From the IMG/VR virus record IMGVR_UViG_3300024308_000008, positions 1-59,499 of that record: DNA of 59,499 bases; one strand, 5' to 3'. Position 1 is the first letter of the stretch; the number at the start of each line of letters is the position of its first letter. The translations under genes and the position numbers were made by a program. The notes beneath the pieces were generated by a model, which did not search any database, was not told the origin of the DNA, and saw only the letters and a list, made by a program, of their open reading frames with translations. The DNA is from a virus. Of this stretch, positions 4,512 to 59,489 are shown piece by piece.

Positions 4512-4901
4512 ATGGCAAGTTTTAAAATCTACAACGTTCAGATCTCCGGCGGCGAAACAACAGTTGAAATCCCCGTTGTTTTCCCTGGCATGACGTCGAC
4601 AGGTGAAACGCTCACTATCCGTAGTGTCTACAGCTCCGCCTTCCGTGAAGCACAAGCCAACATGGCCCGTCAAATCCAAGTGCTGAGAATGGCTACCAAA
4701 GGGGAGCCTTTGGATGAAGCTACCCTGGACGAGTTGGAGCGTTCTGCTTTTGCGAGTCTGGTTTCCGCCTGGTCTTTCGAAGAGGAATGCAATGCTGCCA
4801 ACGTCGTTGAGTTCTTGCAAGCCAACCCGCACATGAAAGACCTCATCAGCGTGCAAAGCGCCAAAGACTCCCTTTTTTTCAAGAACAACGACAAAAAGTA
4901 A
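4512..4901 (+). CDS. Tail assembly chaperone (lambda G analogue)
   Basis: ATG follows ggag. Call rests on size and on position directly upstream of the tape measure gene. Confidence 0.7.
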   Translation: MASFKIYNVQISGGETTVEIPVVFPGMTSTGETLTIRSVYSSAFREAQANMARQIQVLRMATKGEPLDEATLDELERSAFASLVSAWSFEEECNAANVVEFLQANPHMKDLISVQSAKDSLFFKNNDKK

Positions 4902-16559: not shown

Positions 16560-17483
16560 TCAGAATAACTCCTGGATTCGCGGTGTGAAAACTCGGGATT
16601 CCTTGTGAGTGTTAATACGATTAGCGATCTGCCGATAAGCCCACATGTTAAAGGTGGCCCGGGTTTCGTAAATTGTGGTTAAACGTTCAAGATCAAACCC
16701 GCTGTCTTCGATAAGCTTCTCAATGTAAGCCTTTTCGATAGGTAGCAAGTTCAAAACATGCTTACCCATGTCATGTATAGTCCCAGCCTTTTCGGAGACA
16801 CGATAAGGCACCCCGTCTGGTGTAAACATGGACCCATAGGCCCCGAACTGTATCCAGGACGACGAGTCGACAGAATACCAAGGGTACCGCTCCATTACAC
16901 GAACGGATGTGATACCAAAAGCGTGAAGTTTGGTCTTAGGACGGCCAGCTCCATCGATAATATAGCGCTCCCAAATCCTGTCGAGCCATGTGATGAGCTG
17001 CTCGACAGTTTTTCCAACCATTCCTCCGAGGGTGATATAGGGGTAGTTCGCGAGGTAGAACTCAAGATACCTTTCATCTTCCCCAAAGTGGAAGCAGGGA
17101 AGGGGTCTAACCCCTCTGGCTTCCATCTCCAATTGGTTTCGGTAGGTTTGCAAGGGGTCGCCGATGCCGTCAAGCACTGAAGCCATAACGACTCCGTCGT
17201 CTTTTCTAATGATATCCTCATTTTCTTGTATATATCGGCAGTACCCTGGGAGGCTAATTGTAGCTCCCATGTTCCAAGCGGAGAAAGCACCGGAGTCGAG
17301 GAAAACTTGAGCGCCGTCTGCACGCATTTCGTCGACGGCTTTTTGTCTGTGAACATAGTGATAAGATTCCAGTATGTTGGGTATAGTATCCACTATATTG
17401 GCTTCGCGCTCGTTCAGCTTAGGGTAGGTGCTCTGACCCTTGCGAAATCCGTTTGTGTACACAGCAGCAAGATATAGGTTCAC
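16560..17483 (-). CDS. dpdA: DpdA-family 7-deazaguanine DNA transglycosylase (TGT fold)
   Basis: 'QVFLDSGAFS' and 'PYITLGGMVG' TGT-like motifs. GTG start follows GGAG. It is the last gene of the deazapurine operon. Confidence 0.8.
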   Translation of the reverse strand: MNLYLAAVYTNGFRKGQSTYPKLNEREANIVDTIPNILESYHYVHRQKAVDEMRADGAQVFLDSGAFSAWNMGATISLPGYCRYIQENEDIIRKDDGVVMASVLDGIGDPLQTYRNQLEMEARGVRPLPCFHFGEDERYLEFYLANYPYITLGGMVGKTVEQLITWLDRIWERYIIDGAGRPKTKLHAFGITSVRVMERYPWYSVDSSSWIQFGAYGSMFTPDGVPYRVSEKAGTIHDMGKHVLNLLPIEKAYIEKLIEDSGFDLERLTTIYETRATFNMWAYRQIANRINTHKESRVFTPRIQELF

Positions 17484-19974: not shown

Positions 19975-20733
19975 TTACTTGTTGGAAGCGTATTCCTTGT
20001 AACCCGCTTCGCGCAGGTTACAGGCCGGGCACTGTCCGCAGCCGTAGCCCCAGTCGTGCAAGGTGCTGTGGTCCCCGTTGTAACAGGTGTGGGTGTCGTT
20101 GATGACGGTTTCCAGGATACCCACCTTTTCAGCAAGCTCGAAGGTTTCCGCTTTCGTGAGGTGCATCAGCGGAGTTACGAACTCGATGTCAGTTTCGTAA
20201 CCTTCGTTGAGGGCGCATTGCAGTTGAGTCACGAAACCTTGACGACAGTCGGGATAACCAGAGTAATCCGTTTCACAGACCCCAGTCATGACGAAGTGGG
20301 CGCCTACCTTTTGGGCGAGGGCGTGAGCTGTGGTCAAGAACAGCGCATTGCGGTTCGGCACAAACGAAGCCGGCAGGTTGGCGTTTTGGCTATGCCGTTC
20401 GTTGACATCAGTCTGTTCGCTACCAGAAACCAGCGCACTGTTGCCCAGAGAACGCAGAGCAGGTATTTCGAAGACGTGCAGTTCAACCCCGAACTTGCGG
20501 CAAATCATCGAAGCACATTGCAGTTCAACGGCGTGCTTTTGACCGTAGCTGAAAGCCACTGCCGTCACGTGGTCGTACAGCTTCAAAGCCAGCCCCAGGC
20601 AGGTTGTGGAATCTTGCCCGCCGGACAACACAACAACAACGTCGTTGTTAAGCCCCGCTTTATTCCGCGGAAGCACTTTGCTCCCCTCAACGTGGAGGAG
20701 GCTTTCAACTTTGCTAACACGTTCGTGATTCAT
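19975..20733 (-). CDS. queC: 7-cyano-7-deazaguanine (preQ0) synthase
   Basis: 'VVVLSGGQDSTTC' PP-loop, C-terminal Cys cluster 'CGQCPAC'. No fused amidotransferase domain is present. Confidence 0.9.
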   Translation of the reverse strand: MNHERVSKVESLLHVEGSKVLPRNKAGLNNDVVVVLSGGQDSTTCLGLALKLYDHVTAVAFSYGQKHAVELQCASMICRKFGVELHVFEIPALRSLGNSALVSGSEQTDVNERHSQNANLPASFVPNRNALFLTTAHALAQKVGAHFVMTGVCETDYSGYPDCRQGFVTQLQCALNEGYETDIEFVTPLMHLTKAETFELAEKVGILETVINDTHTCYNGDHSTLHDWGYGCGQCPACNLREAGYKEYASNK

Positions 20734-20734
20734 A

Positions 20735-21445
20735 TCATTCTACCTTCAAAATTTTGTGAATTTGAAGCTGCACAGTGTAATCGTGCGCCATTGCAGTCAA
20801 AACAGTTTCTTCCGTGTTGCGCCCGTTGGCGATCGGGTCCTGCTCGTCCCTGGGCTGCACGTAAATAATACCGCCGAAGTATTTATCAGGTCTAGCGATG
20901 CAAGGGGTGGCCTGGTGGCCGAGCGCTTGGTAGGGGAGGCCATCTGAAGGGTCCAGGTTGCCTGCTGTAACCACATACTTGAATGCGTCAACGACCCCCG
21001 CAACAGAAGGGTGGAGCTTTGCAGTTTTTGGGCTGCAAACGACAGTCACCATCCCACTGAGGAGGGCTTCGTCGATCTTCATTGTGCCGTTTGTTTCGAC
21101 TTGCACCTCCCAACCAGCGGCAATCAGCGTATCGAAAAGCGGGTACACGTTTTGACGGAAAGGCTCACCGCCTGTTACAACAACCAGGGAGCTTTTACCA
21201 TTTTTCTCGCTGTGCTTATAGTTGATGTTCGCGAGGATTGTCTCGACGCTCATTCTCTCCCGCTGCGACGTGTAATCGGTGTCGCAGCCAGGGCATTGCA
21301 AGTTGCAGCCAGCAAGGCGGACGAAAACAGCAGGGCGGCCTGCGAAAGGGCCTTCCCCTTGGATGGTGTAAAAAATGGAGTGGACTTCAAGAGAGCCGGA
21401 CTTGTTGTGGTCACGTGGCTCAGTAGACTGGGCGTTAGAGATCAT
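20735..21445 (-). CDS. queE: 7-carboxy-7-deazaguanine synthase (radical SAM)
   Basis: 'FYTIQGEGPFAGRPAVFVRLAGCNLQCPGC'. The start was moved to ATG 21445 because the track's GTG start lies inside the upstream terminator hairpin. Confidence 0.9.
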   Translation of the reverse strand: MISNAQSTEPRDHNKSGSLEVHSIFYTIQGEGPFAGRPAVFVRLAGCNLQCPGCDTDYTSQRERMSVETILANINYKHSEKNGKSSLVVVTGGEPFRQNVYPLFDTLIAAGWEVQVETNGTMKIDEALLSGMVTVVCSPKTAKLHPSVAGVVDAFKYVVTAGNLDPSDGLPYQALGHQATPCIARPDKYFGGIIYVQPRDEQDPIANGRNTEETVLTAMAHDYTVQLQIHKILKVE

Positions 21446-21490
21446 TGGTTTGCAGTTTCCTTGTGGTAGATCATTAAATTGTAGAGAATA

Positions 21491-21516
21491 AAAAACGCCC
21501 ACTTGGGGGCGTTTTT
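21491..21516 (-). terminator. Rho-independent (bidirectional-type) terminator upstream of queE
   Basis: aaaaacgccc-acttgg-gggcgttttt. Confidence 0.6.
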
Positions 21517-22915: not shown

Positions 22916-25903
22916 TCAGAAAGGTATATCGTCGAAATCTTCTTCGTCCTTTTGTACTGAAGAGTTCATCGACTGGACTACGTTAACCATTGGGGTCGAA
23001 GCGTGCGCTGGTAAATATGCCTCGTCATCGTCGTAGCTCGTGCCGTGATTTTGCTGCTCACCGACGTTGTTGGACAGTATAGCGTTCTTGGTGTAGATCT
23101 GAACCCCAACGGAAGTTGTTTGAGCTTCCCTCTCCCCGAAACGCGAACCGTCGTAGCAGCACGCGAGAACTATAGGCCACTTGACGTTGGTGTGAACCCT
23201 AATCTGTGTTGGCACAGCGAGCTGGTTTATAACGTCCAAAGCATCGTCGACACTTGCAGGCAAAGGCAAGGGCGACCTTATCGTCCACCACTTGTAAGCT
23301 TTGCGCCCTGCCCAATCCGAGTGCTGCAAGCAAACATATTCGACGAACGTTTTGTGACCACAATAGTACGTCACTTTCAAAGTAGGCGGCTTGCTCCTGT
23401 CACCCCTGTTAACGTTTTTCTGGTAAACAACGTTTTCAACGTCGAACACTTCGATAACAGGCATCTGGTTTTTAACCAGCTCTTCGCTGCTGGCAGCTCT
23501 TTTCAGCTTCTCTTTAAAAGTGAACGGGGCGCCACAAAAGCCTATACCAGGCTTGAAAGCAGCGTCTTCTGCTGATACCCCACCGCAGAAGCGCCACGCA
23601 GGGTATTGACCGTCGGTGCCACAAACTTCACAGGACTTGTAAATAGGCGCACCACCTCCTTTTTGACCGGGCCGTCGGGGCACAGCAGGATCGTTGATAG
23701 GCCCAAGTTTGCGACTGTTGCCCGAGAAGTCCAGGACAAGGCAATTCTGTTTATCGCTAGCAGCAATTGCCGCTAACCTTTGCTCCCTGTCCGACAGGTC
23801 AAACCCAGGGGCGTAAACTGGGCGCGTGCCCCGGCCCAACATTTGCACCCACAGCACAGGCGACCCTGTAGGGCGAAGCATGATTATGAGGTCTATGTCC
23901 GGGCAGTCGAAGCCTGTTGTCAACACATTGTTATTGGTCAAAGCCATTAGCTTGCCCGACTTGAAGTCAGCAATAGCTTGGTCGCGCTCTTTGCCTCCCA
24001 TTTTGCTATGCACCGCACAGGCTTTCACCCCGTTCTGGTTCAACAGCGCTGCGAAGTCTTCTGCGTGCTCGACCCCTGCACAAAACACCAGCCACTTCTT
24101 GCGGTCACCCGCTACAGCTAGCGCCTCGTTCAAAGCAAGTTGGTTGGCTTCAGCTTTGTTCACAGCAGCTTGCAGCTCGCTCGAGATGTATTCCCCTCCG
24201 CGCTTACCTACACCAGAAACGTCAAGCTGCATCTTGGTGCGCTTGGGTATCAAAGGCATAAGGTAACCTTCGCTGATAAACCAGTTGAAGTATTCAACGG
24301 AGGAGCCGTCAAACACAATGTGGTCAAACATTGCGCTAACACCAAGCTCTTCGTCACCTTCCTGGCGAACAATAGGACCGAAGCCCATTCTAAAAGCTGT
24401 AGCGGTAAAGCCAATGATTTTTAGGTAAGGGTTTCTCTCACGCAAAGCAGCAAAGAATGCCTGGTACATCGTTTGGTCTTTGGGTGAAATCAAGTGGCAT
24501 TCGTCAACAAGTATTAAAGAGACGGAGCCAAACAAGTGTGCTTTCTTTGCGACAGAAGCAATCCCAGCGTAAATAATCTGGTCGTGGACGTCTTTCTTTT
24601 TCAAACCAGAAGAGTAGATACCCAAAGGGGCTTCTGGCCAGAGCTCTTTCAGTTTAGCGGCGTTTTGGGCGATAAGCTCCTTAACGTGCGTCAGCAACAT
24701 GAGCTTTTGCCCAGGCCACCACTGGCAAATAAGTCTCATAAACTCTGCCAGGCAAATGCTTTTACCTGTGTTGTGGTGGACAATAAAGTCGCTTGTCAAA
24801 TACAAATGATCAGAGTCCAAAGTAAAGCCATAGAAGTCATCTTCAGGTAAAGCTTCTATTTCCAAGCCTGTGCAAAGAACATCTTTGATCTGTTTGCGAG
24901 GAGACGCCTTCTTATAGCCTAGCCTAACGGGTATAAGGTCGATATCCCCGCTCAAACAAACGTTGTAAGCTTTGGATATAAATTTGCCGTTCAATGTTGC
25001 ATCTTTTTCAAACAAAGTAGCTTGCAACCCTAAGCTACGTGCAACAAATCGAACACCTTCCGAAAGGTCTTTGGATACACTTGTGAAGGTGTAAGTATTC
25101 GATTTGTCGTAATACCCATCTGAATCTAAAAGCCCTGCGAGCAACTCGAGACGCTGCTCGCGGCTTGCCACCTTGTAACAGTCAGGGATGAAGTGAGTAT
25201 AACTATTAGAGCCCCATAAACCCAAGCTATCAAACGCTCGTGTGAAACGGTTACCTTGCTCAGTGGGGTCTGAGATATACGTGTACCAAGCCGAGTCGTC
25301 CTTCTTACTCTGTTTAGCGACACAGAAATTTTCTTCTTGTGCGTAAGTTTCCCACTCTGCCCAGATCTCCTCTTCGCTGCCTGTATAGCTAAGAGTAGCA
25401 GCGTTAAGGAAACCGTCGCCCAACATAAGCCCGAAGATATACGCAGGGACGGGTTGGGCTGCCTGCGGAAACTCGACACCTACCCTGCGTAGCTTACGAA
25501 TATGCTGGAACCAGTTCGAACCAAGCTCGTATTGGTTAACTGTCACTGTTTCAATTTTACTTTCAACACCACGACCAGTCGCACAAACTTTCATGCTCAG
25601 CTTGTGGTCACGGTTAACAACAAAAGACTCCCCTTTCGTGGGTGTTATGCGACGCATCTCTTGCCGACCTCTCGCCAAAGCCAATACGTTGCGAGGTTTG
25701 CTATCAGGACCCATAAGCTGGTCGCCAACTTGAACATCTTGAACCAGTTTAATGGAACCGTCAAACATGAGTATTTCGGAGTCCTTGGCGTGGCACCCCG
25801 TTGGCAGAACAACCACGGGATTGCCTGCTTGAGATTTATGCTTGTCAAAATACCGAAAAATGCTGTAAGTCGCTTCAAGCTGATAGTCACGGGGTTTGAG
25901 CAT
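22916..25903 (-). CDS. SF2 (DEAD/DEAH-type) DNA helicase precursor containing an intein. The predicted mature form is ~653 aa and ends in an acidic ...EEDFDDIPF tip.
   Basis: Motif I is split 'VVVLPTG|C...HN|TGKS'. Motif II is 'LILVDECH' and motif VI is 'QMLGRGTRP'. ATG 25903 was chosen because it lies 1 nt after the upstream stop. Confidence 0.85.
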   Translation of the reverse strand: MLKPRDYQLEATYSIFRYFDKHKSQAGNPVVVLPTGCHAKDSEILMFDGSIKLVQDVQVGDQLMGPDSKPRNVLALARGRQEMRRITPTKGESFVVNRDHKLSMKVCATGRGVESKIETVTVNQYELGSNWFQHIRKLRRVGVEFPQAAQPVPAYIFGLMLGDGFLNAATLSYTGSEEEIWAEWETYAQEENFCVAKQSKKDDSAWYTYISDPTEQGNRFTRAFDSLGLWGSNSYTHFIPDCYKVASREQRLELLAGLLDSDGYYDKSNTYTFTSVSKDLSEGVRFVARSLGLQATLFEKDATLNGKFISKAYNVCLSGDIDLIPVRLGYKKASPRKQIKDVLCTGLEIEALPEDDFYGFTLDSDHLYLTSDFIVHHNTGKSICLAEFMRLICQWWPGQKLMLLTHVKELIAQNAAKLKELWPEAPLGIYSSGLKKKDVHDQIIYAGIASVAKKAHLFGSVSLILVDECHLISPKDQTMYQAFFAALRERNPYLKIIGFTATAFRMGFGPIVRQEGDEELGVSAMFDHIVFDGSSVEYFNWFISEGYLMPLIPKRTKMQLDVSGVGKRGGEYISSELQAAVNKAEANQLALNEALAVAGDRKKWLVFCAGVEHAEDFAALLNQNGVKACAVHSKMGGKERDQAIADFKSGKLMALTNNNVLTTGFDCPDIDLIIMLRPTGSPVLWVQMLGRGTRPVYAPGFDLSDREQRLAAIAASDKQNCLVLDFSGNSRKLGPINDPAVPRRPGQKGGGAPIYKSCEVCGTDGQYPAWRFCGGVSAEDAAFKPGIGFCGAPFTFKEKLKRAASSEELVKNQMPVIEVFDVENVVYQKNVNRGDRSKPPTLKVTYYCGHKTFVEYVCLQHSDWAGRKAYKWWTIRSPLPLPASVDDALDVINQLAVPTQIRVHTNVKWPIVLACCYDGSRFGEREAQTTSVGVQIYTKNAILSNNVGEQQNHGTSYDDDEAYLPAHASTPMVNVVQSMNSSVQKDEEDFDDIPF
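24770..25795 (-). mobile_element. 342-aa intein with a LAGLIDADG homing-endonuclease core, inserted in the helicase Walker A loop
   Basis: The first residue is Cys (TGC, 25793-25795). The last residues are His-Asn (AAC, 24770-24772) and the +1 extein residue is Thr. LAGLIDADG motifs are 'IFGLMLGDGFL' and 'LLAGLLDSDGYY'. Removing the intein restores PTGTGKS. Confidence 0.85.
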
Positions 25904-25904
25904 T

Positions 25905-26825
25905 TTACTTACCGTAATAATGGGCCATTTCGTAATGACTGCAACCTTTAAGTTGCTCCTCGACGTCAAGTGTAGCATTAACCACACTGTGCCGACAATG
26001 CCACTTGCCATCCTCTTTTGCTATCGAGTATCGGCAGGTGCGGCAGTTTCTCAAAGGTTCTTCACCTCTGTAGCAAACACCCGCAAAGTCGCACATCTTG
26101 CATTCGAACCAGCTTGCGCCTTTATTGCTTAACCCAACAGGCGCTTCGTCCGCCCCTGCAATTTGATCGGCACGGTCGAGGAAGTGCATTGCCACCACTT
26201 CATCGTACATCACAATTTCAGCATAGATCTCGTCTGTGTTTTTGTTCGTTGCAAGGTAAAGCGATGCCCGCAAGTCCATCTTGTTCATGTAAACTTGCTG
26301 CTGAACATAGTGCATAAATTTGGATTCTTGCACCCCTTCTTTCTTGAGCTTTAAGAAGGACTTTTCGCCATGCGTCTTCATTTCAGACAAGATAGCGACG
26401 TTCGGGTCTTGTAAGTCCGGGCAGCCTACAACTATGCCGTCTGTAGCTGAGCCAACGTGACCGCCGAAGCTGCTGATGCGAAACTGCTTACCTTGCGCGT
26501 CTTGCTGGTATACCTTCATGCCTGCTGTAAGTAAGGCGGCGATAAAGCGACCTTCCTCCATGTGGCCACGGTTGAAAAGCCTTAAAATACGACCAGAATG
26601 TTTACCCTTGATCACCCAGCGGAACTGGAAGAACAATTTCCGAGCACAAGGGTCGCCGATGGTGCTCAAGCCCAAGTGGCTTCGTGTCCCTTCGCGAGGG
26701 TCGAAAGCATCGCTGATTGTGGGTATAACTCGCCCCAACCATTCACGATATTTAGCACCTTGGTCTTTCTGAATAGATTGTTCAATTGCGGCCATTGTTT
26801 TTTCGGCCAGATAAATGTGAGCCAT
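25905..26825 (-). CDS. PD-(D/E)XK exonuclease, Cas4/RecB-like, with a probable Fe-S Cys cluster
   Basis: 'SATDGIVVG...AILSEMKTHG', with Cys in 'GDPCARK' plus 'ECKMCDFAGVC...CRTC'. Confidence 0.65.
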   Translation of the reverse strand: MAHIYLAEKTMAAIEQSIQKDQGAKYREWLGRVIPTISDAFDPREGTRSHLGLSTIGDPCARKLFFQFRWVIKGKHSGRILRLFNRGHMEEGRFIAALLTAGMKVYQQDAQGKQFRISSFGGHVGSATDGIVVGCPDLQDPNVAILSEMKTHGEKSFLKLKKEGVQESKFMHYVQQQVYMNKMDLRASLYLATNKNTDEIYAEIVMYDEVVAMHFLDRADQIAGADEAPVGLSNKGASWFECKMCDFAGVCYRGEEPLRNCRTCRYSIAKEDGKWHCRHSVVNATLDVEEQLKGCSHYEMAHYYGK

Positions 26826-36817: not shown

Positions 36818-36985
36818 TTACAGGGAGCAGAGGCGCTCACCCAACGAATACATATTAGCCTGTTGGTGGGGCTTCACGCCAGTTGACACTTCGATGTCTT
36901 TTGCAGTGTGACCCTGGTTGCGCAGATGATAAACCTGGCGAGCCTTGATACGGTTCCACATGACTTTACGTTCACCTTTGTTCAT
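36818..36985 (-). CDS. 55-aa helix-turn-helix protein (below the ORF-track cutoff)
   Basis: Hand translation is MNKGERKVMWNRIKARQVYHLRNQGHTAKDIEVSTGVKPHQQANMYSLGERLCSL. It has a strong AAGGAG RBS and starts 1 nt after the upstream stop. Confidence 0.5.
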   Translation of the reverse strand: MNKGERKVMWNRIKARQVYHLRNQGHTAKDIEVSTGVKPHQQANMYSLGERLCSL

Positions 36986-36986
36986 A

Positions 36987-37538
36987 TTACTTCTCCTTGA
37001 TTTCGTGTGCGAGCTGCAACCCTTTAAGGTTCACGCCCTTGAATGACATTGAAAAGAACTTGTGCGTACTTACGTGCGTAATTGTAGCCAGTGCGTGCCT
37101 GTCATCGCAAGCGTAGCGCCACGCAAAGCCACCGTGCATGTGGTCAATCCGCTTACCTTGCGCCGCCAGGATAACGCTGGAGTGGTCGAACCCTTCTTCT
37201 GCGGCAGCATAAGCTGATCGGAACCGGCGAACAGAAGTGACGTTGCCTTTCTTGTCCCTGGCGACACCGATTACAGGTACAGCAGTCTTAGGGTCCTCTC
37301 CGATATGCGTAACACGCAAAACCAGGACACGGTAATTGCGCGGACCTTTGCGGACCATGCGGTAAAGCTTTTCGCTGGTATACCGACCGCTTCGAGTGAT
37401 ATCCTGGAGCTTACGCTTGGCGTCGGTGACGTGCATCCCAAAGTGGGCTGCAACCTCGTCAGCGGTAACGCCACGCTCGTGGCTCATTGCCCAGCGGGCA
37501 ACTTGCTCGGTTTTACTTATTCCTGAAGTGTGACGCAT
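36987..37538 (-). CDS. DNA-binding protein: N-terminal HTH plus a NUMOD1-like motif, with no nuclease domain seen
   Basis: 'VTADEVAAHFGMHVTDAKRKL' and 'RFRSAYAAAEEGFDHSSVILAAQGKRIDHMHGGFAWRYA'. Confidence 0.5.
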   Translation of the reverse strand: MRHTSGISKTEQVARWAMSHERGVTADEVAAHFGMHVTDAKRKLQDITRSGRYTSEKLYRMVRKGPRNYRVLVLRVTHIGEDPKTAVPVIGVARDKKGNVTSVRRFRSAYAAAEEGFDHSSVILAAQGKRIDHMHGGFAWRYACDDRHALATITHVSTHKFFSMSFKGVNLKGLQLAHEIKEK

Positions 37539-37539
37539 A

Positions 37540-38403
37540 TTACATACCTATGTAGATAGACTTTATCTTGTCGCGAATGTTCCACGCTTCTTCGCGCAGA
37601 GCCATGAATTGTTTGAACGCAGCATAACCAGGGTCGTCGGCGAAGGCTGTGTCTGCGTGCGGGTGTCTGGAGTATGTGCGGAACGTGTCTGTCAAGTCAA
37701 ACCCGTACTCTATGTTATCAGTGAGAACGCAGAACTGGGGGAAGTAGCGCCCAATATCCTGGAGCAGCGCAAAGCTAAAGTGCTTGGGGTGTTTGTAGCG
37801 CAAAGGAACGACGCAAGACATACCTTGGAATTTGAACCGACGCCACTTCTCCAGGCGCTTAGGCACTTCGCTATAACTTTGCAAGTCAGACCAGTGGTGG
37901 TGCAGGGAGCTCACCCCTGGCGCGTCAACGGGTACGTTGTGGTCATTGACGATCAGGTGCGGCGTATCCTGTTGCACCTTTTTAATGTACGCAGGAACCC
38001 GCGCGACTTTGGGCTTAGCAGGCTTGCCCTGCTCACCCTGAGCGCCAACAGGGGCCTTGCTCCCAGCAATAGGCCGCCCAACACGACCTTTACGGTTAGC
38101 CAAATACTCGGCGGCCCACGGCTCCGCGAACTTGCGCAAGTAAAGGTAGATACCATCGCCCATGCAGATGAAGCCAGGGATACCTTCCCGTCGACGCAAC
38201 TCCTGCAAACGTTGCGCACCTAGGCCTAGATATTCCTGTAACTGCTTAGGTGTCCACAATTCCTCTTTCACAGCGGCAACCATCCAGTCGTTCCACTGGT
38301 TAATGGTTTCTAAATCTTTCGGCGCTTCTCCTTGGAAGCTAAGAAGGTCTTTCATGCTCATAACATAACTCGCAATGGTTGTTTGTATAGGAGTATTGTG
38401 CAT
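37540..38403 (-). CDS. Hypothetical protein, first gene of the leftward block (start uncertain: 38403, 38361 or 38355)
   Basis: 287-aa ORF. No clear SD precedes any candidate ATG. Confidence 0.5.
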   Translation of the reverse strand: MHNTPIQTTIASYVMSMKDLLSFQGEAPKDLETINQWNDWMVAAVKEELWTPKQLQEYLGLGAQRLQELRRREGIPGFICMGDGIYLYLRKFAEPWAAEYLANRKGRVGRPIAGSKAPVGAQGEQGKPAKPKVARVPAYIKKVQQDTPHLIVNDHNVPVDAPGVSSLHHHWSDLQSYSEVPKRLEKWRRFKFQGMSCVVPLRYKHPKHFSFALLQDIGRYFPQFCVLTDNIEYGFDLTDTFRTYSRHPHADTAFADDPGYAAFKQFMALREEAWNIRDKIKSIYIGM

Positions 38404-39144
38404 TGATCAGGAATAGAGTGCAAAGGTTTTTAGTAACACCGGATTACTATAATATAGGTTGTAATAATGCAATTGTAATACCGGGTATAAGGTAAAACGG
38501 AGAGTCTAAGTGCGTGACCCAGCAAATATTTGCTAAATATTTAAAACTTACGTTTTTGTCCGAAAACTGCTGCACGTACTAGGGTAAACGCCAGCAAGGG
38601 CGCGGGTAGCGCAAAGGTAGTACCGGGTTACACGATAAAATGCAAAAGCCCATATATTTTCTGTTTTCATATTTTAACCCCCCCTTTTTATATATAGGAA
38701 TGGAAATACCATCCATGGAGGCTAAATCAATTAAAAACAACATGCTATTTTTTCAATTAAAATAAAAAAAATAATAAAATATATATATAAAACACTTATA
38801 AACACTGCATTCTTAGTATCTCTTACTCTTAAAAATTATTTTTTATTGAATCTTTACCCTTCTACTTGACACCAATACACCCCACCGCCTCTATATCGTG
38901 GTTACTAAATTTGACTTTTGCAATTTCAGATTTTCAAATTTAGATTTTCTTTTCTTTCAATTTGATTTTATCAACTTCTCATTCATTTACAGTGATTTTG
39001 TAAGATTCTGACAAGAAATGACGTCACAGCTACCAGGAGGTCGAAGGAAAGCTCCCTGGAGGGTGCGAAGCGAGTAGACTTGATATTGTGGTTACCGCTA
39101 TACTTATCGGACTTTGTAAGCAACATTTACCAGGAGTATTGAAA
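38404..39144. promoter_or_regulatory. AT-rich divergent control region between the leftward and rightward early blocks
   Basis: No convincing ORF. The line at 38761 has 9 G+C in 60 nt. There are palindromes at 38521-38534 and 39019-39026, three GTAnnACCGGnT motifs, and AATTTnAGATTTT phased tracts. Confidence 0.6.
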
Positions 39145-39456
39145 ATGATCATTGAAGAGCGCACCGCCAACTTTGCGGCATGTGAAGGCAAGTTTTTCCA
39201 GGTCGTTGAACGCAACGAAGAAGGCGTCGAGACCTTCCGCCAACTCGAGTGCTACATGCCGGCAGCGGTCAGCACGTATAAGGAGCCTCTGGAGGCAACC
39301 CGCAGCCGCTTCCTGGCGGAACTGGAGAGGGGGGCCAGGGCGAAGAAGTGGGGCGTAGGCGCAACTGGTAAGCCCCTAACGGCCCGTTACCGCATCCGGG
39401 AGTCGGACGGGGAGCTCATGAGCGTCCTGGCCCTGGAGGGCGGGATGAAGCGCTAA
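39145..39456 (+). CDS. Hypothetical early protein
   Basis: ATG lies 8 nt after caggag (39131-39136). Confidence 0.55.
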   Translation: MIIEERTANFAACEGKFFQVVERNEEGVETFRQLECYMPAAVSTYKEPLEATRSRFLAELERGARAKKWGVGATGKPLTARYRIRESDGELMSVLALEGGMKR

Positions 39457-39556
39457 GGCTTGCCCTGGTTACAGGACCAAAAAATTCAAATTTTGTAGAT
39501 GGGTCGCGTATAGGGGCCCTTTTTGCGTTTGCACGATTTTCCGCTCTCGCACGGGG

Positions 39557-39751
39557 TTGACGTGCTACACCGCCTTGTCGCACGGGTGTTGCGTGCTAGA
39601 ACGGGTTGTGGTACGGGTCAGACGTGCTACATCGGGTTGTAGCGTGCCGTTGACGTGCTTGAAGGGTGTAGCGTGGGAGAGACGTGCTAGAAGCGGTTGT
39701 TACACGGAGTTGACGTGCTACAACATTGTAGCCAGGTTTTGACGTGCTACA
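39557..39751 (+). repeat. Seven tandem ~31-bp iteron-like units, core (T)TGACGTGCTAC(A) plus a partial inverted TGTAGCGTG
   Basis: CGTGCT cores at 39561, 39592, 39623, 39654, 39683, 39714 and 39743, giving spacings of 31, 31, 31, 29, 31 and 29. Confidence 0.85.
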
Positions 39752-39781
39752 AAAAAAAATAAAAATAGGTAGGTTATGTGC

Positions 39782-39809
39782 TTGACCCTATGTGTAGTCG
39801 AACTATAAT
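39782..39809 (+). promoter_or_regulatory. Sigma70-type promoter (TTGACC, 16-nt spacer, TATAAT)
   Basis: Read directly. It lies 50 nt upstream of the 39862 ATG. Confidence 0.6.
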
Positions 39810-39861
39810 TAGCTATGTAAAGCAGCACATATTGTGCCGCTCCTAAACGGGGATTGCAAAA

Positions 39862-40197
39862 ATGGCTAACTATACTTATGTCGACAGCACGTTTGTTTTA
39901 ATTGCTGTGGAAGCAGAGGCGGAGCTTGCCTTGGAAAACGGCTTTAGTGTAAGCGCCGAGGACTCCGAGTTGCTCACGCTTACTTTTAACAACAGGGCGG
40001 TCATGTTTGCAGGCGTCTACTTGCAGGACGACAGCACCTACGAGGTCCAGGTGGAGGAAGTGATCAACGAGGACCTGGACACGTACACGGTGGAACTTAA
40101 TGCCAACGGTAATGTGGCTACACTCCAGGAAGCCGGGGCAGTAGTACGCAAAGCCTTTGAAGAGATGCAAGATAAATTGATGCAAGATAATTTCTAA
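39862..40197 (+). CDS. Highly acidic early protein, hypothetical
   Basis: First ORF after the strong promoter. It is rich in D/E and has very few K/R. Confidence 0.6.
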   Translation: MANYTYVDSTFVLIAVEAEAELALENGFSVSAEDSELLTLTFNNRAVMFAGVYLQDDSTYEVQVEEVINEDLDTYTVELNANGNVATLQEAGAVVRKAFEEMQDKLMQDNF

Positions 40198-40281
40198 CTC
40201 CTGGTTGCTTTTACAATCGGTAGTGTAAGACAATAAACACATCGGGGGAACATCTCCCCCGCTCTACAAAAGGTAAATAGT

Positions 40282-40848
40282 ATGTTCGCGATCACTAAAG
40301 AGTTCGATTCTGCCGCCAAAGCCGTTGCCTCCGTTAAGATTACTGCTCGCAACAAAAAGGTCGCACTTCCCGCCGATCTGGACTACAGCCTGCTCGTTAA
40401 GAGCGCCGGCCGCGCATTTGTAGTCGACAACGACGCCCTGAACATAGCAGCCGGGTTTGTGCAAGCTGCCGCCCCGGAAGTTGCGCAAGCTGCCGTCGCC
40501 GTTGCAAGCAAGGGAAGCCTCGCCGCTAGTATGCTGTCCATGTTTAACCGGGACGCAAGCAAGCACGCTGCGGAGGATAAGGCGTTAGCACAAAGCGCTG
40601 GACAAAAAGCTAGCAAGCGTGCTAGCGAGGTCCAAAACGGCGCACGTCGCCCTGCAAAAGCTGGCAAGACTGCCGACGTGTGGGAGGTAACCGAACGGTT
40701 ACAGAACGTCAGGGACGGTGTTACACCCACCTGTAAGGAAGTATATGAGGTACTGGTAAGTCAAGACAAATATTTTAATAAAACGACTTGCAATATCCAA
40801 TACTATGCTTGCCTGAAGTTCCACGGCTGGGAAAACAATCGAGGCTGA
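40282..40848 (+). CDS. Hypothetical protein whose C-terminal domain is paralogous to that of the 21539-22309 product
   Basis: 'QNGARRPAKAGKTADVW...FNKTTCNIQYYACLKFHG'. Confidence 0.55.
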   Translation: MFAITKEFDSAAKAVASVKITARNKKVALPADLDYSLLVKSAGRAFVVDNDALNIAAGFVQAAAPEVAQAAVAVASKGSLAASMLSMFNRDASKHAAEDKALAQSAGQKASKRASEVQNGARRPAKAGKTADVWEVTERLQNVRDGVTPTCKEVYEVLVSQDKYFNKTTCNIQYYACLKFHGWENNRG

Positions 40849-40939
40849 GGTTGATAATAAAGCGGGCCACCGCGCCCGCTTTTAGCCGATACTATATACA
40901 TCAGCTGGGGATTGTCCCTAGCCTCAGAAGGGGTAGCAT

Positions 40940-41407
40940 ATGAAAACCAAACAATCAAGCATGATGGCTGTATTTACCAAGGAATGTAATAACGCGATCA
41001 ACCATGGCGGGAAAATGGAAACCTCTGAGCGCTTCATCTTGATCGATAAAAAGTCCGAGAAGCGGGTGGTGGACGCTTGCGTTTACGTGGGGAGGAGCCG
41101 TTCCTCGTCCCAGGTAAAGGCTGCCCTGTGGGTCAAGCTCTCCGACAAGAAAAAGCCCGAGGGCTGGGAGTACGGGCACACATCGGGCAAGGGTTGCGCT
41201 AGCGGCCACTATAGCGAGGCGATCGCTAACGCTGTAGAGAGCGCGGGGATCGAGCTGTATGGCACTGCATATCCGCGCGACGGCGAACAGGTGGACTTCA
41301 AGGAGAGGGTCCACTTTGGCGGGGTTGGCGAGGGTGCTACCAGGAGGGCTCTGCTGGCGATAGCCTATGCTGCTGGCTGGACCGATGTCGTTTTCGTGGG
41401 GGCTTGA
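40940..41407 (+). CDS. Hypothetical protein
   Basis: 155-aa ORF; start uncertain. Confidence 0.5.
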   Translation: MKTKQSSMMAVFTKECNNAINHGGKMETSERFILIDKKSEKRVVDACVYVGRSRSSSQVKAALWVKLSDKKKPEGWEYGHTSGKGCASGHYSEAIANAVESAGIELYGTAYPRDGEQVDFKERVHFGGVGEGATRRALLAIAYAAGWTDVVFVGA

Positions 41408-41802: not shown

Positions 41803-41894
41803 TCAAGCCTCCACAAGTGTGATCTAATCAACAATGCGCGGCCAGCTGATTTGTGCTACACTGGCCGCAACAGCCAGCCCTAGGAGTAAAGTAT

Positions 41895-49423: not shown

Positions 49424-49993
49424 ATGAGCAATATTGACGTAAACGACCCAGACTGGACTGCTTACATTGAAAGGTCTAAGGAATTAGACCACGATGCTCG
49501 CGTGATCCGTGAGCGCGTCGTTTCAGAGTACCTTTACGACTTCAACTGGACCCGTGCTTGCCTCCGTTGCGGGTTTCGTGCTGAGTTCGCAGAAGACAAC
49601 GGCAAGCGCTTTCGCAATGACCCTTACTGCATTTGGAGAGTCAAAACACTCGCCCGCGAGCGCAACCTTGAAGTTCGCAGCGACGTCACCCCTGAGCAAG
49701 CCCTGGACGAGCAAGCAGCGAAAAGGGCAGACATCCTTAGCGCACTGGAGCGCGAAGCTAACTACTTTGGGCCCGGTAGCAGCGCAGCGGCCCGTGTAAG
49801 CGCACTGGGCAAACTGGCGCAGCTACGAGGCATGGAGCCTGTGAAGCAGGCGAAGATTGAGCACAAGATGCCTGGCGTAATGGTAGCACCCGGGATTGCT
49901 AGCGTATCTGACTGGGAATCTGTGGCCCAGGGTGCCCAAGAGAAGCTCCGAGACGAAACAATGAGCGCCGTCCAAACAGGGGTGACTCATTAA
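49424..49993 (+). CDS. Terminase small subunit
   Basis: The 'VVSEYLYDFNWTRACLRCGF' HTH-like segment is typical of TerS, and the gene lies directly upstream of terL. Confidence 0.65.
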   Translation: MSNIDVNDPDWTAYIERSKELDHDARVIRERVVSEYLYDFNWTRACLRCGFRAEFAEDNGKRFRNDPYCIWRVKTLARERNLEVRSDVTPEQALDEQAAKRADILSALEREANYFGPGSSAAARVSALGKLAQLRGMEPVKQAKIEHKMPGVMVAPGIASVSDWESVAQGAQEKLRDETMSAVQTGVTH

Positions 49994-55303: not shown

Positions 55304-56590
55304 ATGCCGTATACCGTAGCAGGAACATTGAAGTTACCAGAGACAGGGCAACCTGCTGCTGGTGTGATTTTGAAGTTCGTAGCCTTGCAGTCCATTAGCC
55401 CAGTATTGGACCGCTCAGAGAGCGTGATTATCACAAGCTCGACAGGTGCGTACTCTATTCAACTTGAGTACAACACCTATTCTGTGTTCGCGACTCTTTA
55501 TGACAATAAGCCTATTAACTGTGGGCAAATTGTCTTGAACAGCACTGTAGCAACAGGCCTAGATTTGCCTACTTTGCTGAACGGGGGCTATTCTGAACCT
55601 GCCAACCCCTCGTGGATTGTTGAGCTACAAAGACTTGCAAACGTTACAACAAGTGCTGCACAGTCTGCGGCTGCAAGTGCGGCATCCGCAGCGGCCGATG
55701 GGGCCGCTCAGGCCGCGCTGGCTAAATCACATGCCGACAAGGCTGCCCTTAGCGAGCAAGCCAGTAGCGAATCTGCCACTCGCTCCGAGTCAGCTGCAAG
55801 TGCGGCATCCGCAGCGGCCGATGGGGCCGCTGCAAGTGCGGCATCCGCAGCGGCCGATGGGGCCGCTGCGGCTGCAAGTGCGGCATCCGCAGCGGCCGAT
55901 GGGGCCGCTGCGGCTGCAAGTGCGGCATCCGCAGCGGCCGATGGGGCCGCTCAGGCCGCGCTGGCTAAATCACATGCCGACAAGGCTGCCCTTAGCGAGC
56001 AAGCCAGTAGCGAATCTGCCACTCGCTCCGAGTCAGCTGCCAAGCGGGCAGAGGAGTTGGTTGACCAGGCCACTGGTGGTGCCTTGCTGAAAGACCAGAA
56101 CCTGGGGGACGTGCCGAACAAAGAGGCTGCTCGCACTCACCTCGATGTGCCGTCAAAAAGTCAGCTTGCGCAAGCGATCAGCGAAGCGATAGGTGGAGTA
56201 ACGCCAGCCAGTATCGGTGCTCGGCCTGACTCATGGACCCCAACGGCTGCAGATGTGGGGGCGCGACCATCCGACTGGATGCCGACGGCCGCTCAAGTTG
56301 GCGCCAGACCGAGTAACTGGCTGCCGAGCCTTGAAGAGATAGGGGCCGCATCAAGCGGGTCGTTGGATGCCTTACAGCCAGCCGGTTCAGCTTCGTTTGT
56401 TTATGAGGGCGGGGCGTTGACGCAGATGACAGAGCAGCTGCCTGCCGGGGAGCGGATGACGGCGTACAGCTACACAGACGGTCGGTTGACTAAGGCGGTG
56501 GAGACGCTGGGGCAGCTTGTCAGAACCACCACATACAACTATCAGGCTGGCAGTCTTACCGGCTTCACTACTACAGAGGGGGGCGCATGA
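55304..56590 (+). CDS. Side tail fibre protein (prophage tail-fibre N-terminal domain, Ala/Ser repeats, GARPxxWxP repeats)
   Basis: 'GTLKLPETGQPAAGVILKFVAL...GAYSIQLEYNTYSVF' parallels lambdoid Stf N-termini. There are three 'GARP(D/S)xW(T/M/L)P' repeats. Confidence 0.7.
   Translation: MPYTVAGTLKLPETGQPAAGVILKFVALQSISPVLDRSESVIITSSTGAYSIQLEYNTYSVFATLYDNKPINCGQIVLNSTVATGLDLPTLLNGGYSEPANPSWIVELQRLANVTTSAAQSAAASAASAAADGAAQAALAKSHADKAALSEQASSESATRSESAASAASAAADGAAASAASAAADGAAAAASAASAAADGAAAAASAASAAADGAAQAALAKSHADKAALSEQASSESATRSESAAKRAEELVDQATGGALLKDQNLGDVPNKEAARTHLDVPSKSQLAQAISEAIGGVTPASIGARPDSWTPTAADVGARPSDWMPTAAQVGARPSNWLPSLEEIGAASSGSLDALQPAGSASFVYEGGALTQMTEQLPAGERMTAYSYTDGRLTKAVETLGQLVRTTTYNYQAGSLTGFTTTEGGA
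55670..56040 (+). repeat. In-frame repeat block inside the fibre gene: five 39-nt units, and a perfect 128-nt duplication (55670-55797 = 55913-56040)
   Basis: Compared base by base. The offset of 243 nt equals 81 codons. Confidence 0.9.
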
Positions 56591-57366
56591 GCGCACTAGA
56601 TCCGGTCATTCTTAACGAGGTTAAGCTGACCCAAAAGGCTGTTGCTGATTTGGCGAGTTCCAGCTCTTCTGGGCCTACCGAATATCCGTGGCGCGTTTTT
56701 ACCTCCAGTCAGTCTTGGGTTGTGCCAGAGGATGGCGAGTATTTTATCGTTTGTATTGGGGGTGGTGGCGGGTGTGGGCTTGCTACTCAACCAGAAGGCG
56801 GTGCTAGTGGTGGCTATGGCGGTGGTGGTGGTGGTGGTCGTTATGGCGGTGGTGGTGGTGGTGGCATGAGTGTTGTTCGTCGCAATATTTTAAAATCAAC
56901 GACATTGGTGCTGACAGTTGGTAGTGGTGGCTCAACTGGCTATACAGGAAGCAGCGGAGGCGCTAGCACGATAGTGGGTGCTGGACTGAATATATCATGC
57001 GGTGGTGGGGAGGGTGGATCTGGTAGCACATCTGGCGTCAGCGGCGGATCTAGCAGCGGCGGAGATTTAAATTTTATCGGAGGTCGTGGTGGCCCGAGTA
57101 GCGATGGTGGTAGTGGCGCAGGCGGCGGAGGCGCAGGCGGCGGAGCTGGCGGCGGTGGGTGCGGGCCTTTTGGCGGTCATGGCGGCTTTGGTGGTGGCGG
57201 CGGCGGCATTGGCCTTGTGTCGTCCACCACTGGAGCTAGCGGAGCAAGTGGCGTAAGTGGTTCGGTACCATCCTTCCTTAGCTCAATCCCTGGGTATCTT
57301 GGCCCCGGTCACGCAGCGACTGGCCGTGGCGGTCAGGGCTTCATTGCCATTCGGAGGGTGGGATAA
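56587..57366 (+). CDS. Glycine-rich domain protein (fibre-associated)
   Basis: 'WVVPEDGEYFIVCIGGGGGCG', poly-Gly tracts, and ATGA overlap with the fibre gene. Confidence 0.6.
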   Translation: MSALDPVILNEVKLTQKAVADLASSSSSGPTEYPWRVFTSSQSWVVPEDGEYFIVCIGGGGGCGLATQPEGGASGGYGGGGGGGRYGGGGGGGMSVVRRNILKSTTLVLTVGSGGSTGYTGSSGGASTIVGAGLNISCGGGEGGSGSTSGVSGGSSSGGDLNFIGGRGGPSSDGGSGAGGGGAGGGAGGGGCGPFGGHGGFGGGGGGIGLVSSTTGASGASGVSGSVPSFLSSIPGYLGPGHAATGRGGQGFIAIRRVG

Positions 57367-57752: not shown

Positions 57753-57781
57753 CCTCCCAGCGTTAGGATATTCCAATCATG

Positions 57782-57809
57782 GCCCCGCTCTCACGAGTGG
57801 GGCTTTTTT
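57782..57809 (+). terminator. Rho-independent terminator
   Basis: gccccgctc-tcac-gagtggggc (one G:U pair) followed by tttttt. Confidence 0.7.
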
Positions 57810-57832
57810 GTTTCCGTTTGCCGGAGCATCTA

Positions 57833-59122
57833 ATGCCACTTATCGATATTGTGACCATGCGAGGCATGATACCGCGCGTGGCTGGCCAGCTATTGCCAGA
57901 TGAAGCTGCAGAGCTGGCGCAGGATTGCGCATTCGACCGCGGGATTATCACCCCGCTGCGTGACGATCTTGGCCTGGGTGTTCAGTTGCCATTTACGCCA
58001 AAGACAATTTTCCACTACTACGGCGAATTCTGGTTTGCCTGGAGCGGGCTGGTTGAGGTAATGCGCTCGCCAATCGCACAGGATCAATACAACCGGGTCT
58101 ACTTCACGGATGGCGCCTACCCGAAACTGACGTATGACGCGATAGCAACCGGCGGCAGACAGACCATCATTCGCGACAGCGCTGGCAACGCCAATGCTAT
58201 GTTCGTGCTGCCGCGCTTTACCTATGCCGATATTGGCATGACAACTGACATGGGCGCAGGCGATATAACGGCGTTCGATTTTGGCAGCGGCAGCATCAAG
58301 GGCGAAATTTTTATCGGCGCATATCTTGCGTCCGGCTCCGGCGCTGTCAGCGCGCCGCGGCAAGATCCCCGCACCTCGCTCGATCACACCGCCGCCCGCG
58401 ACGCCTGTAGTGCAAAAGGCGCAGGCTGGCATCTGATGACGGCGCACGAATGGGCGGCAATCGCCCTGTGGTGCATGGCCAACGGCTACGAGCCAATCGG
58501 AAACACCAACTGGGGTCGCAGCCACGCCAAAACCTGGATGGTAGGCGATCGGTCCGACAATAGATCGCCGGGTGATACAGCCGGCACGGGGCGAACCCAG
58601 ACCGGCTCGATGGGGTCCGAGGCGACGCATACTCGCACGCTGGGCGGGATTGCGGATCTGGTCGGCAACGTCTGGGAGTGGCAGGACGGATTGCTGCTGC
58701 AAGATGGGCGCTTTAAGATTTCTGCCTACAACACCCAGGCCGAAGTTGACTGGGCGTTTGTCGATGCGTTTCTTGATGCGTCAACACCAACCGGTGGATC
58801 GGCCATCCTGTCCAACGCAGTCAACAACAGACTGGGAGCCATCGGAGACAACGCCAACGCAGGCAACTCAGCCAACGTAGAGTGGCGAGCAATGACAAAA
58901 TCAGGCAGCTACGTCAGCAATCAGGCGATGAAGCGGCTGCTGCTGGAGCCGGCTGGGGCATTGCCGCAGGGGCGCATCTATATGCGCAATTACGGCGAGC
59001 GACTCCCGTTTCGTGGCGGCTCTTGGAGCTACGGTTCCAACGCTGGCCTGGCTGCGCTCGCTCTGGACGATTCACGCGTGAGCACGTACACGAGCCTCGG
59101 GTTTCGCCCCGCCTTTGCCTGA
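57833..59122 (+). CDS. C-type-lectin / FGE-sulfatase-fold protein, probable receptor-binding fibre protein
   Basis: 'GIADLVGNVWEWQDG' and C-terminal 'FRGGSWSYGSNAGLAALALDDSRVSTYTSLGFRPA'. ATG 57833 was chosen because the track start (57779) would place the terminator inside the CDS. Confidence 0.65.
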   Translation: MPLIDIVTMRGMIPRVAGQLLPDEAAELAQDCAFDRGIITPLRDDLGLGVQLPFTPKTIFHYYGEFWFAWSGLVEVMRSPIAQDQYNRVYFTDGAYPKLTYDAIATGGRQTIIRDSAGNANAMFVLPRFTYADIGMTTDMGAGDITAFDFGSGSIKGEIFIGAYLASGSGAVSAPRQDPRTSLDHTAARDACSAKGAGWHLMTAHEWAAIALWCMANGYEPIGNTNWGRSHAKTWMVGDRSDNRSPGDTAGTGRTQTGSMGSEATHTRTLGGIADLVGNVWEWQDGLLLQDGRFKISAYNTQAEVDWAFVDAFLDASTPTGGSAILSNAVNNRLGAIGDNANAGNSANVEWRAMTKSGSYVSNQAMKRLLLEPAGALPQGRIYMRNYGERLPFRGGSWSYGSNAGLAALALDDSRVSTYTSLGFRPAFA

Positions 59123-59207
59123 GCCTTGCGCCTTGGGTTTTGTTGGCGCCACGGTAGTGGCGCTTAATCGGTTGAGGCATGTTTAACATTTCTAGCGGGG
59201 CAAATAG

Positions 59208-59489
59208 ATGAGCTACTTATACGACGGCGAAACGCACGACAACTACGATCCCGCCTTTATGGCGGAGCTGGGCATGAGTGAGGAGGTCATAGCCTCCGTG
59301 CTCGCCCAGCACAACTATGAGCTGACAGAGGGGCAACTGGCGCGTCGCCAGCGCGCCTACGTGGCGGAGTCCGACCCCCTTTTCTTGGAGTGGCAATACG
59401 ACAAGACAGCAGCGGCCGAGCAGGCATGGCGCGACAAGGTGGCGGAGATCAAGCTGCGCTACCCGGTGGCCCGTGGGGCGGAAGAGTGA
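59208..59489 (+). CDS. Hypothetical 93-aa protein (fibre-cassette accessory?)
   Basis: ORF whose last 117 nt lie in the duplicated terminal overlap. Confidence 0.5.
   Translation: MSYLYDGETHDNYDPAFMAELGMSEEVIASVLAQHNYELTEGQLARRQRAYVAESDPLFLEWQYDKTAAAEQAWRDKVAEIKLRYPVARGAEE

Follow-up and report, generated by a model that had tools for sequence, protein, structure and literature searches.

The window analyzed here, a stretch of phage DNA of 59,499 nucleotides, contains an array of seven phased palindromic units that lies directly upstream of an A-rich tract and a near-consensus sigma-70 promoter, is conserved in a position-specific manner within its units, and recurs in phages of other kinds. 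We put at about 50% the probability that the array provides cis-regulatory or architectural sites for a dimeric DNA-binding protein, probably encoded by the host, that would act on the adjacent promoter.

The array spans 39544-39752 on the + strand, and each unit is an imperfect 27-bp palindrome; the aligned palindromes start at 39544, 39575, 39606, 39637, 39666, 39697 and 39726. An earlier note on this DNA had placed CGTGCT cores at 39561, 39592, 39623, 39654, 39683, 39714 and 39743, and our coordinates match exactly. Tandem Repeats Finder returned a period of 31 with 6.8 copies (39547-39752), and an independent repeat search returned seven copies with spacings of 31, 31, 31, 29, 31 and 29 bp, so that both the repeats and the spacings given in that note were reproduced as tandem, phased direct repeats with a 29-31 bp period. 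The sequence CGTGCTASA occurs six times in the 59.5-kb window, always within the array, compared with an expectation of 0.84, and a count of six was reached in 0 of 100 shuffles. When the window was scanned with a 27-bp position weight matrix (PWM), sites scoring at least 12 bits were confined to the array, where their + strand scores were 28.9-36.3 bits, and no site reached 12 bits in five shuffled versions of the window. The related 8-mer GTGCTACA, previously noted in the loop of a hairpin at 41838-41868, is indeed present (at 41853-41860), but we do not count it as part of the array system since it is only an 8-mer, has four occurrences outside the array (1.66 expected window-wide) and falls below the PWM threshold.

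Each unit has the structure TTGTAGCACG-N7-CGTGCTACAA and is joined to the next by a linker of 2-4 bp. The inverted-repeat character described earlier is thus real, although it is better drawn as a single 27-bp palindrome per unit plus linker. The consensus of the window array is TTGTAGCACGGGATTGACGTGCTACAA, and the consensus over 40 aligned units from the window and its relatives is GGTTGTAGCACGGGATTGACGTGCTACAAGG. Within the window, the right arm CGTGCTA is invariant, the well-conserved arm extending to CGTGCTA(C/G)A on the + strand, and the left arm and linkers are degenerate. Across the 40 units, CGTGCT is kept in 37, the remaining three reading TGGGCT or CGGGCT; the ACGGG and TTGT stretches are also well kept, and other left-arm positions and linkers drift. 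Unit alignments and the PWM information profile therefore both reveal a dyad-symmetric site with position-specific conservation, the pattern expected from selection on each copy and not from recent neutral duplication. This conservation pattern is that of a duplex-DNA site presumably read by a protein, most simply a dimer. Half-sites are 17 bp apart, center to center, and units are approximately three helical turns apart, a spacing that would place all bound proteins on one face of the helix. To our knowledge, and as judged by eye, the motif does not fit the consensus for sigma-54 promoters, Fis, IHF, DnaA, LexA, NtrC, the marbox, dif, Ter or parS. The stretch ACGTGCTACAA (39741-39751, and in every other unit) is identical to the universally conserved 16S rRNA stretch ACACGTGCTACAATGG. 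We treat this match as a coincidence, since T never follows CAA in the 40 units, such that the extended -10-like sequence TGCTACAAT is never formed, and since the motif occurs elsewhere in both orientations.

Reading rightward from the AT-rich gap that precedes this region, the order of elements is a weak promoter-like site, a 103-aa gene, a hairpin with a T-run, the array, the A-tract, the strong promoter, and a series of plus-strand ORFs. The 103-aa gene (39145-39456, +), directly upstream of the array, forms a one-gene unit closed by the terminator-like hairpin and T-run at 39495-39530 (+; fold -14.1 kcal/mol, z = -2.0), which we grade as a weak terminator since a simple terminator scan did not call it. 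Overlapping the hairpin and T-run is an element, TTCAAATTTTGTAGA-N4-TCGCGTATAG (39486-39530), that is nearly invariant in the window and in K4PH164 and EC151, the nearest named relatives, within flanking DNA that is unalignable among the three; it may serve as a terminator, as a TTCAAA/18/TATAG promoter or in both roles. On the other side of the array, the A-rich tract A9-T-A5-T (39751-39766, +), which the earlier note had placed at the array end and which can be read directly from the sequence, lies between the last unit and the -35 hexamer, and by analogy with established promoter architecture it may act as a UP-like promoter element. The TTGACC/16/TATAAT promoter that had been reported beyond the array is likewise present, at 39782-39809 (+), matches the consensus at 11 of 12 positions and heads the rightward gene block. 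A weaker promoter-like match, TTGACG/16/AAAAAT (39739-39766, +; 9/12, a consensus match only), has its -35 hexamer inside the last unit. Downstream of the promoter, the first gene encodes an acidic 111-aa protein (39862-40197, +), and a 155-aa protein (gp155; 40940-41407, +) is encoded by the only gene located 3' of the motif in three lineages (the window, phiWae15 and L170/L185 types). The layout of terminator, array, A/T-rich tract and strong sigma-70 promoter is the same in the window, in its metagenomic relatives L011 and L058 and in the Aeromonas phage phiWae15, with A/T-rich tracts at the equivalent place and equivalent promoters after the arrays.

The window looks like the complete genome, approximately 59.5 kb, of a lytic siphophage of the Queuovirinae kind. 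It encodes a PolB, with a processivity factor, that is 59-65% identical to the PolB proteins of EC151, K4PH164, CAjan and Seurat, together with a DUF3987 primase. DpdA-like transglycosylase, QueC-like and QueE-like genes are located on the minus strand at 16560-17483 and 19975-21502; the 7-deazaguanine DNA-modification pathway to which DpdA, QueC and QueE belong is typical of Queuovirinae. A nucleotide search of a phage collection with window positions 38400-41000 gave no match. The minus strand encodes the genes at 13486-38403 and the plus strand those from 39145 onward; the gap between them (38404-39144) is AT-rich (40% GC over 38-39 kb) and holds the cumulative GC-skew minimum. The plus-strand run that follows the promoter consists of small ORFs and then terS (49424-49993), terL, portal and tail genes. 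The C-terminus of the tail fiber shares 88% identity with its counterpart in the Aeromonas phage phiARM81mr and 57% with that of phiWae15, from which we infer that the host is probably Aeromonas.

Several other features of this genome were recorded along the way. Within the AT-rich gap, at the GC-skew minimum, the 14-bp repeat AAATTTAGATTTTC occurs three times (38907-38949), and similar repeats are found at the same place in L011 (1203-1245), EC151 (L009 3288-3327) and K4PH164 (L008 ~3290-3330); its conservation throughout the lineage makes it preferable to the array as a candidate origin or early-promoter control region. The tail-fiber C-terminus is encoded at 57779-59489, and its counterpart gene in phiWae15 adjoins a reverse transcriptase; the 93-aa ORF that comes next after the tail fiber is 65% identical to an ORF downstream of the phiWae15 reverse transcriptase, and both may be remnants of a diversity-generating retroelement target. 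A 1031-aa helicase (22916-26011, minus strand) contains Hint and LAGLIDADG homing-endonuclease domains at residues 73-357, which indicates an intein inserted in the helicase. A 42-bp tandem repeat (55793-55947; 3.9 copies, 94% matches) is located inside a tail-fiber-like gene (55304-56590), and short glycine- and alanine-rich repeats are found at 56800-57155.

Comparison of array copy number among relatives, which had been proposed as a check, gave a range of 0 to ~16 units. At the same location as the window array, L011 has ~16 units and the metagenomic relatives L058 and L113 have ~10. Some of the relatives' units are orthologous to window units and others have been gained, lost or reordered, with the core kept in all of them. 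In EC151 and K4PH164, a homologue of the 103-aa protein, the TTCAAATTTTGTAGA...TCGCGTATAG element together with the hairpin, and ~490 bp of intergenic DNA are present, yet neither has an array, even though their replication genes are common with those of the window phage. The array is thus neither essential nor lineage-wide, and the range of 0 to ~16 units shows it, by comparison of these genomes, to be either dispensable or dose-tunable.

The same palindrome is present in phages that differ from the window phage in their replication, packaging and regulatory genes. PhiWae15 is a different kind of phage, with PolA, a DUF2800 protein, a PrimPol-VapE primase, a Nu1-like TerS and a reverse transcriptase, and its four 30-bp units form an array that is preceded by a terminator and then a second repeat family and followed by an A/T tract and a promoter; immediately past the array the sequence is G-rich. 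An isolated copy of the motif, together with a tight palindrome, GTAGCACGTcagACGTGCT, is located at 550-640 of phiWae15 (L010), upstream of an AlpA-family gene that is followed by the PrimPol-VapE primase gene. Among the kin of phiWae15, L013 has four units, L169 has one and L015 has none. The second repeat family in these phages, CTTCARCCNGCGAGRTYTSCRAAGTAAG, has four copies with a period of ~55 bp between the terminator and the palindrome array (L001 2787-2990, L013 3195-3400, L169 3105-3300). In L170/L185, an AT-rich phage (38% GC), there are two motif clusters, one of them upstream of a gp155 homologue. The cluster at 4782-4883 is ~90 bp ahead of a TTGACA/17/TACATT promoter match and that at 1061-1145 of L170 is ~240 bp upstream of one, and the L170 copies of the motif are found facing either way with respect to the genes downstream of them. 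Contig L259 has five or six units upstream of an operon that includes terS and terL. Finally, a family of HK97-like prophages from isolate genomes (57-58% GC) carries three sites of the form GCACG-N7-CGTGCTACAA, 37-39 bp apart, followed by a partial site, a G7-9 run and TAAAAAT, all between an HNH endonuclease gene and terS (L264 2984-3130; also L270, L256, L262, L258, L253, L267, L248, L216 and L240); an HNH-terS junction is the place where a cos site is expected.

When a PWM was trained on window-type and phiWae15-type units alone, sites in the three further lineages scored 15-27 bits, with the N7 spacing kept. Scores of this size in independent sites with an intact N7 indicate one motif and not a chance likeness of short cores. 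In the window, L011, L058, phiWae15 (in two places) and L170/L185, the motif lies upstream of sigma-70 promoter matches, which are consensus matches only, at a distance of ~40 to ~100 bp from the -35 hexamer, the L170 cluster at 1061-1145 being set farther back. We considered a fixed geometry of site, homopolymer run and TAAAAAT in common with the prophages and dropped it, as the length of the G-run varies. Matches in a giant-virus-like contig (L007), in an integrative element (L004) and in many coding repeats involved the short core only and were set aside.

Which protein might bind these sites was addressed by comparing the motif-bearing phages. With every window ORF used as a tblastn query against phiWae15, only four proteins were found in common: the 155-aa protein (73% identity), the tail-fiber C-terminus, the 93-aa protein and a 97-aa protein. 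Searches with tblastn, Pfam and PHROGs, covering part of each comparison genome, found no DNA-binding protein common to the motif-bearing phages, and a small common regulator could have been missed in a comparison of that extent. The phage DNA-binding candidates listed in the earlier note are not common to the other motif-bearing phages. Three window proteins (36987-37538, 36818-36985 and 37540-38403) have no significant similarity to the phiWae15 HTH_23 protein or AlpA, arguing against a common HTH binder. The primases of the window phage and phiWae15 also lack significant similarity to one another, and the domains of the two replication modules differ (DUF3987 primase and PolB in the window phage vs PrimPol-VapE and PolA in phiWae15). 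The neighboring 103-aa and 188-aa proteins (gp103 and gp188) were rejected as binders: EC151 and K4PH164 encode homologues of both despite lacking the array, and phiWae15 and L170 have no homologue of either.

The 155-aa protein is a poor candidate as well. It has more than 120 homologues but belongs to no Pfam or PHROG family, and no sites were found near its more distant homologues at 18 other loci (L015-L019 and 13 IMG/VR loci). Its AlphaFold model is confident (pLDDT 93), has no recognizable DNA-binding fold, and matches only uncharacterized phage proteins, such as those of BcepSauron and ECP26, and none of the solved structures. On the basis of the siteless homologue loci and the predicted fold we rejected gp155 as the binder. 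A gp155 homologue is also found 3' of the motif in L170, although the gp155 family at large is not linked to the motif. With regard to the host, a genome scan with a tandem-pair pattern returned 29 scattered singletons, none of them in Aeromonas, which rules out a host repeat family, and with it a host repeat or prophage array, but does not bear on single host operators. Since the site is used together with unrelated replication, packaging and regulatory genes, a conserved protein of the window-phage lineage is a less likely binder than either a protein of an Aeromonas-type host or a small mobile regulator.

According to the reading we prefer, each of the seven phased sites would bind one sequence-specific, probably dimeric, DNA-binding protein, and the bound proteins would line one face of the DNA directly upstream of the UP-like tract and the promoter at 39782-39809, and from this position would control when, or how strongly, the rightward transcription unit is expressed. 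How they would do so is a guess: a cooperative nucleoprotein structure might either hold or exclude RNA polymerase. Whether the effect is positive or negative is also a guess, since a near-consensus promoter that has a UP-like element can do without an activator, and timed repression, insulation or an architectural role is favored. Of the four functions that the earlier note had offered for the array, "cooperative operator or silencer" fits best, given the position upstream of the promoter, the dyads, the phasing, the conservation and the recurrence at other promoters, and we retain it in this qualified form. The sites at the expected cos position in HK97-like prophages indicate that the motif need not be purely transcriptional.

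One alternative is that the repeats act as a decoy, titrating a host DNA-binding protein (a regulator or defense component) as phage genomes multiply, with unit number selected for dose. The motif is common to unrelated phages that probably have one host, no common phage binder was found, unit number has changed quickly among close relatives (7, ~10, ~16) with the core kept in every copy, and a copy range of 0 to ~16 fits titration as well as it fits regulation. Placement, however, is consistently promoter-proximal or at the head of an operon and not in arbitrary non-coding DNA, and several phages have only one to four sites, too few to titrate well, and we consider the titration reading unlikely. 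Origin iterons, another of the functions put forward previously, would be bound by a phage initiator, with the A-rich tract melting and transcription from the neighboring promoter helping activation, as at the lambda origin. Phased, tandem, dyad-symmetric repeats do adjoin an A/T tract and a promoter, with the cumulative GC-skew minimum (38-39 kb) and the AT-rich gap between divergent genes ~0.5 kb away. Yet the motif is found with unrelated replication modules (window vs phiWae15), is absent from EC151 and K4PH164 despite their replication genes, and is reduced to one unit or none in phiWae15-type relatives; the A-tract, of only ~16 bp, is as far from the -35 hexamer as a UP element would be; the GC-skew minimum coincides with the switch in gene strand; and the lineage-conserved 14-bp repeat at 38907-38949 is a better origin candidate. 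These observations weaken the iteron proposal to the point where we judge it quite unlikely.

Packaging would give the sites a different role, as a cosB- or pac-like recognition element bound by terminase or by a host accessory factor. The arrangement in HK97-like prophages, in which three phased sites, a partial site and a G-run fall precisely in the interval separating the HNH gene from terS, is what one would predict, as is the L259 array ahead of an operon containing terS and terL. The window itself does not conform: its terS is 9.6 kb downstream of the array, adjacency to terS is seen only in the HK97-like prophages, contig ends of the relatives do not coincide with the array, and the TerS proteins, as classified by sequence reading, are of different kinds (Terminase_2-like in the window phage, Nu1-like in phiWae15, a 146-aa HTH type in the prophages). 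The proposal of terminase recognition thus does not fit the window, and we regard packaging as improbable. Still less probable is an RNA element or extruded hairpin, be it a cruciform, a mimic of a CRISPR repeat or an RNA of tandem stem-loops. Stems of 9-10 bp can form in every unit, the array's + strand gives a more favorable fold than its shuffled versions (z = -3.3), and the unit arms resemble what we take to be the ends of the Neisseria type II-C CRISPR repeat. The fold score, however, is attributable to the inverted repeats themselves, and an Rfam search of the array gave no match at E<=1. Nor do the arms covary: of the units with CTAGA in place of CTACA in the right arm, 15 have an uncompensated G in the left arm and two are compensated (15 G:G vs 2 C:G at the variable arm position among the 40 units). 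These last two results indicate that a base-paired RNA or cruciform is not what is conserved, and on that basis we rejected the hairpin reading. In addition, the motif occurs in both orientations in L170, the array has no spacers, and, with a terminator-like hairpin upstream and a promoter downstream, it is probably not transcribed. A centromere-like function, also raised earlier, found no support; the window looks lytic, and no ParA/ParB-type partition domain was detected in the ~30 window proteins scanned, which include the neighbors on both sides of the array.

Returning to protein-bound sites at the promoter, a broader proposal, which we hold as possible but doubtful, is that the palindrome is a cis-element of Aeromonas-type phages that unrelated lytic and temperate lineages have each acquired, at early promoters, at those of replication genes and at the cos/terS junction, so as to exploit a single host protein (an IHF-like "phage helper" with a GC-rich site), or that expanded arrays soak up this protein as sponges of tunable dose. 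Should at least five unrelated phage lineages recruit or titrate a single host protein by means of this site, that protein would be a host factor for phage development that we have not found described in Aeromonas-type hosts, and the palindrome would be a portable regulatory module whose strength is tunable by copy number. If instead the array is the ordinary operator of a small phage regulator that was missed, the finding would be routine. In either case, the natural series of 0, 1, 4, 7, ~10 and ~16 units provides a concrete test set, and the array cautions that phased repeats beside an A-tract need not be annotated as an origin. A shallow literature search found nothing on such repeats in Queuovirinae or EC151.

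The array bears similarity to several known systems and differs from each of them. At rrnB P1, Fis sites and a UP element are located upstream of a strong stable-RNA promoter, and in this textbook comparison the array is alike in having several sites on one face, at approximately three-turn spacing, upstream of an A/T-rich UP-like tract and a near-consensus sigma-70 promoter; unlike those of rrnB P1, its sites are GC-rich palindromes that do not fit the Fis consensus, and there are up to 16 of them rather than three. Like the iterons of the lambda origin (the O-some) and of plasmid origins, the units are tandem dyad-symmetric repeats with a promoter and an A/T-rich stretch beside them. Iterons change together with their cognate initiator, however, whereas the array motif is found across unrelated replication modules and is missing from relatives with shared replication genes. 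F plasmid sopC and other tandem-repeat centromeres are also composed of 30-43 bp tandem units with an inverted repeat and variable copy number, and sopC units are bound by an HTH dimer; the array differs in lying at a promoter in an apparently lytic phage with no partition-type domain in the scanned proteins. The lambda cosB R sites and SPP1 pacL boxes are repeated boxes by terS, as are the sites in the HK97-like prophages, but the window array is 9.6 kb from terS, and TerS differs among the motif-bearing phages. The p4 sites of phi29 and the Cox and Apl arrays of P2 and 186 are, like the array, multiple phased sites upstream of promoters, and p4, Cox and Apl form nucleoprotein complexes at early promoters that switch transcription. 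Each of those site sets is confined to one lineage and its own regulator, in contrast to the array motif, which is common to several unrelated lineages. Thus, phased arrays of sites upstream of promoters are already a known kind of element, and what is unusual here is the presence of one long palindrome in at least five unrelated phage lineages, in different functional neighborhoods and in 0 to ~16 copies.
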